A stretch of 64,000 bases of DNA from assembly GCA_951406725.2 (NCBI GenBank), contig OX597829.1:52762001-52826000 (forward strand), read 5' to 3'. Below are positions 2,670 to 60,349 of the stretch, piece by piece. Source of the stretch: Octopus vulgaris (lineage: Eukaryota). Position 1 is the first letter of the stretch; each line of letters starts with the position of its first letter. The notes beneath the pieces are model-generated. The model saw only the letters and a list, made by a program, of their open reading frames with translations, was not told where the DNA came from and searched no databases. Both the position numbers and the translations under genes were made by a program.

Positions 2670-2860
2670 CACTGTCAAATCCAATGCTTAATTATCCATA
2701 TTATTTTGAATCAATCGTGCATTATCTCATAGCTCTGGAATTTTAAATACTGCTTATTGTTAAAATGACATTGTAGGGTAAGTGTAAGAGGCCAGATCTG
2801 GTTGGTTTGAACATAAACCAGTTAATTTTTGGGTAACTTATGGCTAATTTAAATGCTAAA
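2670..2860 (-). mobile_element. piggyBac-like MITE, degenerate copy
   Basis: Internal sequence shared with 4213, 17576, 34225 and 37426. Confidence 0.6.
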
Positions 2861-3305
2861 AAATTTGATTATTGTTAACTTGAAATAATTAGGCAAATAT
2901 TGGGGCAAACTGACAGGAGAGACTGCATAGAAGTGGACTGAGCAGTAGACAAGGACTGAAGTCTCTGAAATAGAATGAAAAATTCTATGATTGCCTGGTG
3001 AAGAAATATAAAGAGAATTAACAAAGCACATTTCTGTAAATGTATGCGAGTTCACTTGAATAACCAAAGCTACTTCTCTTACTTAGATTATTTTGGAAGC
3101 AAAGCTAGAGAGAAAAGAGTTCAGGGTAACGGTTCCAATGTATAAAGTTGGTAAAGGCCAGTGGTGGTTATGGATAAGCTGCTAAATTTAATAACCTAGA
3201 GGTGGTTGGTTCAACCTCTACTACTGTTATTATTCTAAATCCAAGACTACTTTTTGTCTTGAACAAAAATAAAAAAAAAAGTTATAGAATAATGAACTAT
3301 ATATT

Positions 3306-3353
<48 letters not shown>

Positions 3354-4212
3354 TATTTTTATTTTTTTTCTTTCTTATATATGTGATGGATACTGAATGA
3401 CAAGAAAAGGCAAAGATAAAGATAGATTTCAGAAACCATATTTCACTACCTTGTCAGGGATAAGGAGAATTTATCAAATTATCTTTATCAATTTTTGCGA
3501 GAAATGAAGCAGAATAACAAAAAATGTTTTATATTTTGCAGGGTGACTGTGTTTATTGCTCTTGTATATTTTCTTATATTAGTATTCAGTTTTGATTTTT
3601 TTTTCATCACAACCATTCCATGATTTTGGAATATCTTCCTTCATTTGCAACGTACCGTCTAGCTCAGTTAACATTGTCAAATATCACATCAAACAAACTG
3701 TTATTCTGAGATTTCAAAACTCCTCGTGTCTCGGAATCAATCTTCTCAATTATCATTCTTTGATATTTATATATACTAAATTCTGATTCATTCTCACTTC
3801 ATCATACTACCATCAAACCATTCCTTAAGCGATTCTAGCATCCCATCAGTATCATTCTATCATATACTTTATTTATTTATTTATTTATTTATTCATTCAT
3901 TCATAAAATCATTTTCCTGCCAGATAAAATGGCTGAATTCATTATTTCCAGAAGCAAGCATTAAATTTTCCTACTTCAAAATAAATTAAGAAAGAAAATA
4001 CAAAAAAGAAAAAAAGAGCAAAAGCAACAAGGATTCTTTGAATAAATGAAATGCAAATTTTCGATAATTCCAACTGTCAGTGGAATCTGAATTTTCAATC
4101 ACAATATAATGATTGGTAACGACTTTACTTAAAGTTCTATTCAAATAGAATGTTACTTATTGAGACTTCTGCTAAATTAGTCATTAATACTTTCATGGTT
4201 ATATAATTCAAT

Positions 4213-4383
4213 TTAACCCTTTATCATTTAAACTGGCCAGATCCAACATCTCACACCTACCCTACAATGTCCATTTAAAAACAAACAATCACATCTTCAA
4301 ACTCTCAAAACTATAAGATAATGCATGATTAATTAAAAACAATATGAATAGATAAGCATTAGATTTGACTGCTAAAGCGTTAA
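4213..4383 (+). mobile_element. piggyBac-like MITE
   Basis: TTAA-ccctttatcattt ... gctaaagcg-TTAA ends; several copies in the window. Confidence 0.75.
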
Positions 4384-12056: not shown

Positions 12057-14065
12057 ACATCCAATTCCTTAGTTCTTTTACCATTCACACCATTTCTTCT
12101 AGTATGCCCTCTTTAGTTGGCTATTTATTATTCACCATTTTGTTTCGTTTTTAGTTTTTCCTTCACTTACACTTTTACCTTGTAATCTACTTATAGTTGA
12201 TATGCACACTTTAGTTGAATAATCTCAGGAAACAAAATGCTATTCCCATGAGAACAAAAGAAGGTTATCAAGGTCTTCAATCTCCTTTTTGAACAAGAAT
12301 GTAACCAAATTATCTTTCATTTATTCTTCTTAACTATTTAAATTGCTAAACAAGCCATTGTGACTTGAACAACCTTCATTCATCAGAGAATGAACTACTT
12401 TCGATTGTTATTTAAAAGACAAGAAAAAAAAGAAAGAAAAACCGATTTAAATTTTTCTTTCATAAATATCATCATCACCCACCCACCCTTAATGTTTGTG
12501 AATTTTCATTCATACAGAGGTTAAACAAAATAAATTTCAAAATTTTGTTTATGCTTGCTGTATCAATGACTAAAGACCTTTGCACCCAATAAAGAAGTTC
12601 TGGTAAAATTCCAAGAAGATTATTTCTTTTTCAGTGTAGTTTGTCCTAAATAAATTGTAAATAATATAATCAACCACAAACCCTTCGTGATAATGTAATC
12701 AAAACGATTGATTAAACTTGATGCAAGAAGGTTGATTGGATTCATTCATTGATTGAAATTTCCTGTTAGTAATTGATGAGTTGAAGCCTTCAGCAGATGG
12801 GTGTTATATTTTAAGTGACAGACTACTAGATTCTACATTGCTTTAGTTCAACTATTCATCAAGAATATATATATATACATCAAATCAATTTGGCAATGTT
12901 TTCACTGATAAATTTGTGCCCTTTGCAGCTTTAGGGGAAGGATGGACATTAATTTGCTTCACATTTTGAAACTGGACCTAAGAATAGATCTTTAAAAAGA
13001 AACTCTTTTTGAAGACTATTACACAAGTGATAAAGCACTGAAAATTTATACACACACACACACAGTAGGTGGGAGCTAGATATACTCAGTATAAAAAAAC
13101 ATGCTGTAATGCTCAAATGAACGAGAAAATATATATATATATATATATATAATGATATGTATGCGCACACATACAAAATAATTTAGAGATTCCATTTGTT
13201 TATTTGTTAAAAGCAAAATTGTTAGTCTGCATTTGCTCTACATAGACATATTATACCTTTTTGGAATCAGGATGATCCTGGGAGCTAAAATTTGGCCTTC
13301 ATTTTGGTTCTTGAACATCCAGCATTGGGATCTGATTAAAAAGCATTTGGGTTGCTATTTCTAGCAGGTAAAGCTTGGCATGTCAGATGATGTCAAAGAT
13401 CAAAGAGAAGATAAATGATGTTTGCTTCGTTAATTTTACATCAACATAGGAACTTTGGGACAAATTGGTCAACAGTTTGAATTCAACTTGGGATTGGAAC
13501 AATAGAATGATTTGCATTACAGAATTAGTTCTCATTTGTCCTTAACCTCTGACCAAACACTACCGGGGCATATAGTCATTATAGATGCATTGTAGCCATG
13601 CTATTCAGCTCCCTTTAGTTTGGGGCCATAGGCCCAATTAGCCCTCCACAGGAGCTGGGTTAGTTTAGCTTTCAGCTCCCTCATTTAGTCATATATATAT
13701 ATATATATCAGTCATTAGACAGTGGCCATGCTGGGGCACCACCTTGTAAAATTTTAACTGAATTGACCCCAGTACTTTTTTTTTTTTTTTTTCAAGCTTG
13801 GTACTTATTCTATCGGTCTCTGTTGCCTAACTGCTAAGTTATGAGGTCGTAAACACACCAACACCAATCGGTCTTGGTGTGTTTACATTGGTGGGACATG
13901 AACACACACACACACACTCAGGAGGCTTCTGATTTTGGTAAGGCATTGTAATACAAATAACCAGTTCTTGGAGCTGAATGTACATATGCATTAGAATAAA
14001 ATGTTATGATTACAGAACATTAATTATTGACTAACAAAGGGACAGGAATTACATAATCAACTTCA

Positions 14066-14980: not shown

Positions 14981-15210
14981 GTATTCTGTTGTGTCTGGGG
15001 AGAGTCATTTTCTTTTTGTGCCTTATAATTTAACACACTCACCGGTAAAATTTCCACTTATTTCTTTTTCATTTTTCTAAAAACTATTGAAAAGGTTGCA
15101 AGACGCAACGAAAATTTAAGGAAAATAAAAAAAGTTGGAATTTTACTGGTGAATGTGTTAAATTATAAGGCACAAAAAGAAAATTACTCTCCCCAGACAC
15201 AACAGAATAT
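14981..15210. mobile_element. Fold-back element (~100 bp arms) with a hammerhead-like motif at its centre
   Basis: Arms 14981-15082 / 15112-15210; centre cta-TTGAAAA-g-gttgc-aagac-gcaac-GAAA-attt. Confidence 0.7.
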
Positions 15211-49373: not shown

Positions 49374-52295
<2,922 letters not shown>

Positions 52296-52300
<5 letters not shown>

Positions 52301-53538
52301 TTTCTTTTATTTGCCACCAGGACGGAGGGGGACAATACAAAGACAGACATAAAATGTGGGAATGGTAAAAATAGCAAGATATAGGATCGGTGGACGTTCC
52401 ACTTTAGCTATATCGAGAAGATTAGTAGCGAGGAAGTGCGGCGGCGTCCTCATGGAGATCCTGGGCGCCAACGAAAACTAGTCTGTTCCGGAGGACTTTC
52501 CGGTTGGGGACTACTATGGTTAATTTCCAGATGTCTTTGACCTGGCAGCACTATCGATTCGAGATAAAACTCTACGGATACGGATATCCTGTCAGACGAG
52601 CTTGTCCGAGGTTGCGCGCAGAGCGATGAAACCGTTCTGCATGCAACTCGTTCAGTGTCTGAGTTTTGCTAACTTGTGGAGTTATGTCGTCGATCAGCTG
52701 CTATTGCGTGTAGGAGAGATCCATCTGTCGATCGAGTCCGTAGAGTCGATTGCCCCTCTGGCCTCCTTTAGTCGGGCAGGCAAGGCAGTTTTCCTTTGCC
52801 TGGTGGCTGTGGCGAAAGAGGTTGTCTGATGGACAAGTCTGAAAGGAACGGGGACTGAGACAGTCCTCTTTAGAATATCCTTCACCGACTTTTGCAAGTT
52901 TCACTTGAAATGGAAAGTGAAGGTGGAGAGGGAGAAGCTGCCCTCGGGTGAATTTATAAAAAAAGGTGGGTGAAAGTTGTGAAAATGGCAAGAGTGGGTG
53001 GTACCGCTCTATGTGTAGACCGGTGAATCGGAGGAAAGGAGTTGGAGAGGGACTTGTCCTTGGTATTCAAGGAAATCTTGGATGGTGGGGTTCTTCGATT
53101 AACCCTAGAGGTCCTCCTGGATCAGAAGGACCACCCCTCAATATCATATTTCCCCCCTTACTGTCATATAATATGTATACCTATTTCTTTACTACCCACA
53201 AGGGGCTAAACACTGACGGGACAAACAAGGACAGACAACCGGATTAAGTCTATTACATCGACCCCAGTGCGTAACTGGTACTTAATTTATCGACCCAGAA
53301 AGGATGAAAGGCAAAGTCGACCTCGGCGGAATTTGAACTCAGAACGTAACGGCAGACGAAATACGGCTAAGCATTTCGCCCGGCGTGCTAACGATTCTGT
53401 CAGCTACCGTGTATACTTTTCTCTTTTTTTCTTTTAATCATTTCATTATTATATGTAAACCCCTATATTTTATGTCTGTCTTTCTATTGTCCCCTCATCC
53501 TTCGCTCTGCTGACAAATAAAAGAAATCATTATTATTA
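52296..53538 (+). mobile_element. Tx1/L1-like LINE 3' region (+) preceded by an inverted 3' terminus (52296-52370, -)
   Basis: Homologous to 49374-50727 in opposite orientation; both ends read ..caaataaaagaaat into (ATT)n. Confidence 0.75.
53181..53409 (-). mobile_element. Young Nin/Deu SINE inserted in the LINE 3' UTR
   Basis: CpG-rich and intact; flanked by a tgtatac direct repeat (53174-53180 / 53410-53416). Confidence 0.9.
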
Positions 53539-53539
53539 C

Positions 53540-53708
53540 CTGGCAGAGTCGTTAGAGCGCCGGGCAAAATGCATTAGCAGTATCTCGTCTGTCTTCGTGT
53601 TCTGAGTTCAAATTCCGCCGAGGTCGACTTTATCTTTCATCCTTTCGGGGTCGGTGAATTAAGTACAAGTCAAATACTGGAGTCAATGTGATCGACTATA
53701 CTCCTCGG

Positions 53709-57008: not shown

Positions 57009-57445
57009 CGCAGGAGAGGCTGTGTAGTAATAAGCTTGCTTCCCAACCACATGGTTCTGGGTTCAGTTCCACTGAGTGGCACCTTGGGTGTCTTCTACTA
57101 TAGCCTTGGGCCAACCTCAACCTTGTGAGTGGATTTGGTCGACGGAATCTGAAAGAAGCCTGTTGTGTGTGTGTGGGTGTGTGTGTGTGTGTATGTTTGT
57201 GTGTGTGTGTGTGCGCGCGCGCGCGCGTGTTTGTTTGTGTGTCTGTGTTTGTCCCCCATCATCACTAGACAACCAATGTTGGTGTGTTTACATCACCGTA
57301 AGCTAGAGGTTCGGCAAAAGACTCTGATAGAATAAGTACTGGGCTTACAAAAAGAATAAGTCCCGGGGTCGAGTTGCTCGACTAAAGGCGGTGTTCCAGC
57401 ATGGCCGCAGTCAAATGACTGAAACAAATAAAAGAATAAAAGAAA
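57007..57445 (+). mobile_element. Full-length CORE-type SINE
   Basis: Head ggcgcaggagaggctgtgtagtaa..gggttcagttcc; A-rich tail. Confidence 0.9.
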
Positions 57446-57455
57446 AAATATATAT

Positions 57456-57726
57456 ACTCTTTTACTCTTTTACTCTTTTACTTGTTTCAGTCCTTTGACT
57501 GCGGCCATGCTGGAGCACCGCCTTTTGTCGAGCAACTCGACCCCGGGACTTATTCTTTTTGTAAGCTCAGTACTTATTCTATCGGTCTCTTTTTTGCCGA
57601 ACCGCTAAGTGACGGGGACGTAAACACACCAGCATCGGTTGTCAAACAATGCTAGGGGAACAAACACAGACACACAAACACACACACATACATATATACA
57701 TATACATATATACGACGGGCTTCTTT
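57456..57726 (-). mobile_element. CORE-type SINE 3' half, tail-to-tail with the previous copy
   Basis: Reverse complement of 57150-57445. Confidence 0.9.
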
Positions 57727-57896
57727 ATATAAATTTTTTTCGTAATGAGATAAAAAAAACCAAGGCCGGAGACGTCTCCGATGAAGGGATATAATAAATA
57801 TCCTGGAAACAGCTGTAAGCCCTTCTATCTATAAATGTTCTAAAATCTACACAGCCTTGGTTTTTTTTATCTCTTTACGAAAAAACTTTTTATATA
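57726..57896 (+). mobile_element. Fold-back mini-element with a hammerhead motif in its loop
   Basis: ~40 bp inverted ends; gtct-CCGATGA-a-gggatat-aataa-atatcct-g-GAAA-cagctg-TA-agcc at 57774-57821. Confidence 0.7.
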
Positions 57897-58014
57897 CACA
57901 CACTGACATATGACCAACGCTGAACCCTTTATTCGCTTAATCACCGCACCTGGAACTTAGCTACAGTCTATCTATAGCACTTATTCAGCAATGACACCTT
58001 TACCTCTCATAACC

Positions 58015-58530: not shown

Positions 58531-58600
<70 letters not shown>

Positions 58601-58694
58601 ATCCAAACGTGAAAACACAAAGAGAAAACACAACAACGCGAGGACGTGTAAAAAATATAGTATTATTGGATGCTCAGGAAGGAAGGGAAGGAGG

Positions 58695-58729
58695 GTTTAA
58701 CGTTTCGAGCGGAGCTCTTCGTCAGAAAC
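58695..58729 (-). ncRNA. Minimal type-I hammerhead ribozyme motif
   Basis: gttt-CTGACGA-a-gagc-tcc-gctc-GAAA-cg-TT-aaac: full core, paired helices I and II, palindromic helix III. Confidence 0.8.
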
Positions 58730-58840
58730 ATAGGAAAAGGAAAGATCCAGAGAAGGGAAGACAGAGGGAAAAAAATCGCCATATATATGGGGGAAAAAGT
58801 CAAGGTAAAAAATGCTAAAATAATTTTATAAAAAACATTT

Positions 58841-58876
58841 CAGTACCGGTTTCAGTCATTGAGACTTTTTCAACTG
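58841..58876 (-). ncRNA. Minimal hammerhead, U3-A8 variant (left arm)
   Basis: Exact reverse complement of 59963-59998. Confidence 0.75.
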
Positions 58877-59669
58877 TAAGTATGGAAAACAATTAAATTT
58901 TGGAAAAATTAAAAGAAAAGTTGTTTTTAAAGAATATTTACATAGTGTTCAAATACAAGGGGCTTTTTCCTTGTTTCTGCCTGTTTCTGTCTCTCTTGTT
59001 TACTCTTGTGGGTTCGAGGTCGTTGTGAATTCTTGGTAGGGAAGAAAAGAGAGAAAAGAAGGAATGCAGGTAGTATGATAGTAGTAAGGTGTTAAATGGT
59101 CAGGTGACCTAAAAGTGACTCGTTATGGATTATAGCAGTGATTGGGACTGTTTTTAAATGAATTCTTGGGAATCTCTTGAGAGTATAATTTTTAATATTT
59201 GTGTGTGTGTTTGTGTTATTCTAAGACCGTGGTGGATACAGATCCCAGATCAAAATTCCTCAAAACAGATAAATAGCATTCAGCCAACACATAGACATTT
59301 GCGCCAATAACAAAGATTCAAGCTTCAGAATTTTCCCCCTCTACCAATTCATGGACGATACAACCTGTAGCCAACAAATTAGTAAGGAGACTCTCTTTAT
59401 TACAAAATACAGACCCCATTTGAACGCGTCTACAACAAACGACATATCCACCACGGCCTTAGAATAACACAAATACACACACAAATATTTAAAATGATAC
59501 ACTCAAGAGATTCCCAAGAATTCATTAAAAGACAGACCCAATCACTGTGATAATCCATAACGAGTCACTTTTAGGTCACTTGACCATTTAACATCTTACT
59601 ACCTACATTCCTTCTTTTCTCCCTTCTCTTTTTTTCTTCTCCCTTCTTCTTTTTCTTCTTCTTCTTCTT

Positions 59670-59737
<68 letters not shown>

Positions 59738-59962
59738 CCTCCTCCTCCTCCTCCTCCTCCTCCTCCTCCTCCTCCTTCTTCTTCTTCTTCTTCTTCTTCT
59801 TCTTCTTCTCCTTCTTCTTCCCTACCTCGAACCTACAAGAGTAAACAAGAGACAGAAACAGGCAGGAACAAGGAAAATGCCACTTGTATTTGAACACTAT
59901 GCAATATTCTTTTAAAAAACTTTTCTCTTAATTTTCCCAAATTTAATTGTTTTCCATACTTA

Positions 59963-59998
59963 CAGTTGAAAAAGTCTCAATGACTGAAACCGGTACTG
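59963..59998 (+). ncRNA. Minimal hammerhead, U3-A8 variant (right arm)
   Basis: cag-TTGAAAA-agtc-tcaat-gact-GAAA-ccgg-TA-ctg. Confidence 0.75.
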
Positions 59999-60349
59999 AA
60001 ATGTTTTTTAAAAAATTATTTTAGCATTTTGACCTTTTTCCATATATATCAACTCGTGTGTTCGTTTTCAACCTTCTACACACACACACACATATGTATA
60101 TATGCTTTTATCCTTCGAAACGTAGAGTAGATGAAAGCTTTAGCGACTGAAGAAGGGGTTTTTCCTTGTGTTAATTGTCCTGTATTCTATTTTTTTGCTG
60201 TTTTTAAATAAATGTCCAGTTCCTTTGGTTTGTGTCTATGTTTTCGTTTCTCATTGTGTTCGACGTCCTTTTTGGTGTCCTGTACTTATATATGCGCGTA
60301 TATGTACATGTAGAGATAGGTACGTACATATATGTTTATCTATCTATCT

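Follow-up and report, generated by a model that had tools for sequence, protein, structure and literature searches.

With a probability of about 85%, the palindrome at positions 58781-60049 of the window, i.e., the entire 64,000-nucleotide stretch of Octopus vulgaris DNA analyzed here, is an ordinary decaying relic, in which a 5′-truncated 3′ fragment of a high-copy Penelope-like element (PLE) lies head-to-head with a shorter inverted copy. Each arm carries a minimal hammerhead motif with a U3-A8 pair. A U3-A8 core, opposite-strand hammerhead pairs and head-to-head copies are all already known in PLEs.

Architecture of the palindrome and identity of the element

The window is AT-rich, microsatellite-rich eukaryotic DNA. 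Within it, the sense PLE fragment (59237-60041, plus strand) adjoins the inverted, shorter and likewise 5′-truncated copy of the element's 3′ end (58789-59238, minus strand), which according to its alignment to the right arm holds the last codons, the 3′ UTR, the hammerhead and the tail. The left arm as a whole spans 58781-59238 (458 nt) and the right arm 59445-60049 (605 nt, including a trinucleotide tract of ~189 nt). Aligned globally, the arms differ by 13 transitions and 10 transversions, together 23 mismatches over 415 columns, and by 10 gap events, corresponding to a divergence of 5.5% plus large indels and in agreement with the scattered substitutions and indels described in the first-pass annotation. 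The largest gap comprises ~189 nt of a GAA/GGA/TAA-type tract of the right arm that are missing from the left arm. On the plus strand the 3′ UTR carries this (CTT)n/(ATT)n/(CCT)n tract at ~59610-59820 (approximate limits), and it is short in the left arm. The 3′ ends of both copies point outward and lie at the same position, and each is followed by ATATATAT, an 8-mer without strand that occurs identically at the left (58781-58788) and at the right outer end (60042-60049). The two repeats are likely the (TA)n target in the form of an 8-bp target-site duplication; among the reads and contigs listed from the sequencing runs described below, none crosses the junctions of the locus, and no empty site was found.

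The arms had been described as enclosing a spacer with a C-terminal GIY-YIG fragment. Alignment and tblastn bore out the two arms and the fragment, but the latter is not a separate part of the locus. It represents that 5′ part of the sense copy which was not duplicated (59237-59444, plus strand), as indicated by the protein matches and by the joint between 59238 and 59444 in family copies, and is followed by the sense arm (59445-60041, plus strand) with the end of the ORF, the microsatellite-bearing 3′ UTR, the hammerhead and the tail. Neither a direct tandem copy nor a direct pLTR was found within the window. Classification as a non-LTR retrozyme was rejected, as there are only one sense and one antisense hammerhead and no head-to-tail tandem units, and a coding remnant is present.

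Positions 59237-59425 (plus strand) encode the C-terminal 63 codons of a GIY-YIG endonuclease, with one in-frame stop at 59270. A lack of relationship to the GIY-YIG domains of PLEs, named at the outset as a possible refutation, was not observed: in tblastn, protein P0003, which contains PF01541 above the cut-off, matched 59237-59461 in one frame with one stop (E 7e-19, 49% over 81 columns). The RT-bearing proteins P0023-P0026 matched the same segment at E 4e-16 to 4e-12, and 18 of the 23 longer PLE proteins matched 59237-59446. A phmmer search with the spacer peptide yielded 21 proteins, 18 of which aligned as GIY-YIG C-termini. The remaining three (P0004, P0018 and P0020) were omitted from the alignment (A2), and P0004 and P0018, which are repetitive HYR and cohesin proteins, were treated as chance matches. 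The 54-aa spacer peptide alone matched no Pfam family, and no relatives of the element were found in viral contigs. One of the protein relatives is labeled Argonauta hians.

All 23 longer relatives of P0003 contain the CX2-5CxxC linker (the zinc finger of Neptune and Nematis), and the closest full-length relatives have a telomerase-related RT in the same ORF. Within the window, the truncated element contains neither RT nor linker, and the protein search gave no other match there; the assignment to a clade therefore relies on the relatives. We conclude that the element is an EN+ PLE, and we infer from these relatives that it belongs to the Neptune (or Nematis) clade. It resembles members of these clades in the C-terminal GIY-YIG domain, the hammerhead near the 3′ end, the 5′ truncation with an adjoining inverted copy and the (TA)n insertion ends, the occurrence of ATATATAT at both ends and of (TA)n at the ends of family copies being consistent with a (TA)n target preference. 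It differs from them in that only the last 63 codons are present, interrupted by a stop, in that RT, linker and direct pLTR are missing, and in the long microsatellite within the 3′ UTR.

Hammerhead motifs and neighboring repeats

Descriptor scans identified a minimal type I hammerhead in each arm. Copy 1 is located at 58841-58876 on the minus strand (predicted cut after A17 at 58844) and copy 2 at 59963-59998 on the plus strand, which is also that of the GIY-YIG frame (predicted cut after A17 at 59995). The UUGAAAA core reported earlier was found to be identical in both, starting at 59966 (plus strand) and with U3 at 58873 (minus strand). In the plus-strand copy, stem I (CAG) is followed by the core, stem II (AGUC-UCAAU-GACU), GAAA, CCGG, UA and then CUG. 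With a U3-A8 Watson-Crick pair, GAAA and UA, both motifs fit the pattern N3-U-G-A-N-N8-A ... GAAA ... UH, and helix III of both is the palindrome ACCGGU. The first pair of stem II is A10.1-U11.1 and departs from G10.1-C11.1, which is the consensus and not obligatory. A strict descriptor gave three matches in the window, i.e., the two arm copies and one in a neighboring element, versus 0.017 per shuffled window (60 shuffles). The 31 Rfam matches of the window with E values up to 1 do not include a hammerhead; since the descriptor count is far above chance, we nevertheless regard the motif as real. Minimal motifs of this kind had to be sought with a descriptor. An exact degenerate hammerhead pattern gave no match in metagenome contigs.

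In structure predictions, the monomer formed stems I and II only (-6.1 kcal/mol), and two copies co-folded via helix III (-19.5 kcal/mol), as would be expected for dimer-type PLE hammerheads. The two motifs had been called twins. Two copies are indeed present, but a joint function does not follow, because they are located on opposite strands and helix III (ACCGGU) needs a second sense copy. They cannot dimerize in one transcript, and a dimer formed by the two with each other was ruled out.

The 36-nt hammerhead, counted from stem I to stem I, is identical between the arms and lies within an identical run of 69 nt (58829-58897), which is the longest one shared by them. If the 33 events are scattered at random, the 42 columns surrounding the hammerhead remain free of them with P = 0.028, and an identical run of 69 arises anywhere with P = 0.075. 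The reported identity of the motif and its flanks was therefore reproduced, but the special conservation implied by it is marginal and suggestive at most; the low number of changes gives a weak hint of conversion or constraint.

We compared the region downstream of the endonuclease in 12 related PLE loci. C3-G8 cores were present in four (L001, L006, L009, L011) and a U3-A8 core in one (L002, behind an open frame of 754 codons). In L012, the core is possibly A3-U8 and stem II is weak, the core of L003 carries an inserted base, and L004, L005, L007, L008 and L010, some of which are truncated, showed no clear motif. The palindrome ACCGGU also occurs in L001. Maintenance of a Watson-Crick 3-8 pair, C-G in 4/12 and U-A in 1/12 loci, supports the proposal that U3-A8 is compensatory. 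A private double mutation was rejected, as U3-A8 is present in both arms, is the probable family majority and recurs in L002.

Some of these loci deserve mention in their own right. L002 (912-3290) contains an apparently intact PLE ORF of 754 codons with the U3-A8 hammerhead ~70 nt past the stop codon, followed by (TA)n. L011, a PLE with a C3-G8 hammerhead and a (TA)n end, stems from a record bearing the title of a SUP05 bacterium assembly and is likely animal host DNA. In L012, an uncertain hammerhead-like motif with a 7-bp stem I and palindromic GCGC is located at 3259-3305 behind an open PLE frame of 782 codons; the title of the record names a bacterial MAG, and the sequence is likely host contamination.

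Minimal hammerheads with U3-A8 in PLEs were reported by Cervera and de la Pena in 2014, with ~1,300 in Schistosoma (PMC4209133). A natural U3-A8 is also described in PMC3088659, where in vitro activity of exchanged 3-8 pairs is cited, and for a PLE hammerhead rescue via the 3-8 pair as well as protein-assisted cleavage have been reported (PMC11167929). The motif described here shares with the U3-A8 hammerheads of Schistosoma Cercyon (PMC4209133) the type I topology, the palindromic helix III that requires a dimer and the U3-A8 pair. It differs from the PLE minimal hammerheads of that study in its stem II of 4 bp beginning with A-U instead of the highly conserved G10.1-C11.1, in having no extra base between positions 9 and 10.1, and in a stem I of only three perfect pairs (PMC4209133). 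Natural 10.1-11.1 states other than G-C have been reported (PMC3088659). Opposite-strand pairs of PLE hammerheads were found 100-700 bp apart (PMC4209133), whereas the distance here is ~1,090 bp. None of the papers listed in a literature search on octopus hammerhead ribozymes deals with such motifs according to title or abstract; the supplements of PLE papers may list the family.

Several other repeats are located in the vicinity of the palindrome. The left arm is adjoined by a 3′ fragment from another repeat family of very high abundance (58597-58780, minus strand). Its minimal hammerhead is of the C3-G8 type, with helix III ACGU and the core CUGACGA at 58725, and the fragment terminates at a long (TA)n tract; it is likely another PLE end, and in one RNA run its family RNA was ~10x deeper than that of the main element. 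At 60100-60275 (plus strand), scrambled hammerhead pieces, with the GAAACGUA half preceding a CUGAAGA half, are followed by a tail that is rich in T and has (TA)n at its end; this is probably a third PLE-type 3′ end. A small head-to-head relic at 57720-57900, 1 kb from the main palindrome, has the same architecture and belongs to another family. Its inverted ends measure 41 nt (57726-57766 and 57854-57894, 93%), the junction is a palindrome of 14 bp without mismatch (57767-57780), and the plus strand carries a hammerhead-like motif with the core CCGAUGA and the palindrome CAGCUG. Another palindrome (57227-57685, arms of ~230 nt, 86%) is formed by a dispersed SINE-like repeat, which is present twice here and also occurs at 13700, 23460, 33812, 41889 and 43320; the palindrome accounts for an Rfam match to MIR841 below the gathering score. 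Further inverted pairs or fold-backs of 74-83% identity were found at 49509-50261 with 52383-53180, which flank a very long (AAT)n tract, and at 14982-15209, 53247-53697 and 2674-4369.

Family copies and origin of the inverted arm

Three DNA sequencing runs and one RNA run were mapped to positions 58600-59450 at 82% likeness. The DNA runs yielded 22,655, 14,837 and 5,086 diverged contigs, respectively, numbers that include the neighboring element, and the family of the main element is dispersed and present in high copy number in three organisms. In all four runs, contigs or reads of the family joined 59444 to 59238 on opposite strands. These joints identify the spacer plus the right arm as the collinear element and the left arm as the inverted duplicate. 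Family copies end in (TA)n; in the three DNA runs, 57, 47 and 41 contigs, respectively, have a loose end at 58794. Loose ends with GAA/GGA repeats were found at 59046 (42 contigs of run X1 and 26 of run X11); the microsatellite also occurs in other family contigs and was therefore dismissed as a novelty of this locus. The majority of the family has an open codon at 59270, and the stop at this position is private to the window copy. In run X2, among the 15 of 81 joints listed, two (58862-59009 and 58879-59039) are formed by single contigs that switch strand within the arm, which suggests other inverted family copies with different breakpoints.

Of the 40 variants listed out of a total of 251, 19 concerned the left arm. 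The right arm carries the family letter at nine of these, the window letter is common to both arms at eight (one beside a gap), and two fall into gaps. Position 58985 is a case in which the two arms agree with each other against 93-95% of the family depth in the three DNA runs. Shared minority alleles together with nine letters private to the left arm indicate a single source lineage of the arms, followed by separate decay. Among the 40 of 251 variants listed, none is located at 58809-58922, which indirectly fits U3-A8 as the probable majority state of the family.

The palindrome likely arose in one insertion event, with a (TA)n tract as the target, and its subsequent decay was likely neutral. 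Two-strand priming is the mechanism that we consider most likely, though only slightly more probable than not. The element endonuclease would nick both strands of an AT target, and each 3′-OH would prime reverse transcription, which in both cases would start at one and the same position shortly past the hammerhead. The two cDNAs would end prematurely, after ~450 and ~800 nt, and their end-joining would place the 3′ ends outward and leave the 8-bp ATATATAT duplication. In experiments with a purified PLE protein, both strands of AT-rich target DNA were cut and extended, the RT start sites being the same (PMC11167929). Inverted 5′-truncated copies are typical of PLEs (PMC8557442), and the view that inverted pLTRs are a known arrangement agrees with reports that head-to-head copies are their most frequent inverted form (PMC3846280; also PMC8557442).

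The same dead element might alternatively have acquired its inverted arm by fold-back self-priming, with a truncated cDNA switching onto itself, leaving a loop of 206 nt and being extended back as far as the end of the element. We regard this as the main alternative, though the less likely route. Such a process was proposed for head-to-head PLE insertions on the basis of palindromes at inverted junctions (PMC3846280), and it would agree with the alleles common to both arms and with the 14-bp junction palindrome of the neighboring relic. The junction itself (59238/59239) shows a microhomology of at most 1 nt and a 4-bp hairpin (GGAT/ATCC, 59234-59245), which is compatible with fold-back as well as with two-strand priming, yet short enough to occur by chance. 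The low microhomology and the both-strand extension observed in vitro also speak against fold-back. In Adineta vaga, Penelope copies are likewise 5′-truncated with inverted ends head-to-head, some of them with target-site duplications of 8-10 bp, and have clear junction palindromes in contrast to the 4-bp hairpin seen here (PMC3846280).

Two independent back-to-back insertions of the same family appear improbable. PLEs tend to insert beside existing PLE copies (PMC6765202), the neighborhood is a PLE cluster, and the arms differ by 5.5% and large indels; however, neither target DNA nor (TA)n separates the arms, minority alleles such as that at 58985 are common to both, and the outer ends carry the same 8-mer.

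Predicted transcripts and significance of the family

If the locus were read through, the arms were predicted to pair throughout (MFE -605 kcal/mol), so that the long hairpin sequestering the sense hammerhead, as proposed in the first-pass annotation, is borne out at the level of folding. The proposal that transcription of either strand gives one sense ribozyme likewise holds, with one sense and one antisense copy per transcript; in either direction the antisense hammerhead would emerge before the single sense copy. As the lone sense copy follows its antisense partner and would be zipped into the long hairpin, the hammerhead at this locus is predicted to be inert. The U3-A8 hammerhead was probably inherited from the active family, in which it would likely act as a weak dimer ribozyme in tandem transcripts; PLE minimal hammerheads show low dimer activity (PMC4209133).

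An exapted locus is improbable. In such a model, a hairpin of 400 bp burying the U3-A8/A10.1-U11.1 hammerhead would be edited or diced as long dsRNA and help to silence the very abundant Neptune-type family, and the ribozyme block would be kept identical by selection or conversion. The 69-nt identical block (P 0.03-0.075), the very stable predicted hairpin and the presence of family RNA on both strands in one RNA run are in its favor, and palindromic repeats such as Xenopus Harbinger and lizard Penelope are known ADAR substrates (PMC5625713). Those repeats are alike in being self-folding and forming long dsRNA if transcribed, whereas editing was shown there and dsRNA is predicted here. The RNA run contained 1,100 family reads, distributed about equally over both strands. 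Only three reached 99% likeness and 89% continued into unlike sequence, which assigns these reads to paralogues rather than to the palindrome. Editing-type changes (A>G plus T>C) were not in excess in this paralogous RNA, with 60/192 variant positions versus 30/113 in DNA from a run labeled as the same species (Fisher test, p = 0.23), a weak test that is not locus-specific. Nor did read ends pile up at the predicted cut site, again a weak test based on ordinary RNA-seq of paralogues. A search of sequencing runs gave no RNA run containing the sequence among those listed (best share 0.49), a result that is uninformative on expression. No Pfam family reached the cut-off among the 100 candidate ORFs scanned out of 254 in the window, which speaks neither for nor against an intronic position of the locus. 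In addition, at least five more repeats of the fold-back or close inverted type occur in the window, and since such structures are common in it, a hairpin at this locus would not be special. Least probable is an assembly or library fold-back artefact: inverted PLE structures are known to trouble assemblies (PMC8557442), and none of the listed contigs spans the junction or the entire mapped stretch, but such an artefact would leave near-identical arms instead of arms with 23 differing sites, 10 gaps and nine left-arm letters private versus the family.

Since both headline features are already in print for PLEs, the palindrome as found matters little by itself. The family adds to the natural lineages with U3-A8, and stem II of its hammerhead unusually opens with an A-U pair. 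This hammerhead is suited to a simple dimer cleavage assay, with L002 being a better subject for studying U3-A8 activity than the relic in the window. Counts of head-to-head relics throughout the genome could separate two-strand priming from fold-back priming in PLE integration. If the locus were in fact a transcribed and conserved source of dsRNA, it would be a case in which the insertion geometry of a retroelement feeds its own silencing.
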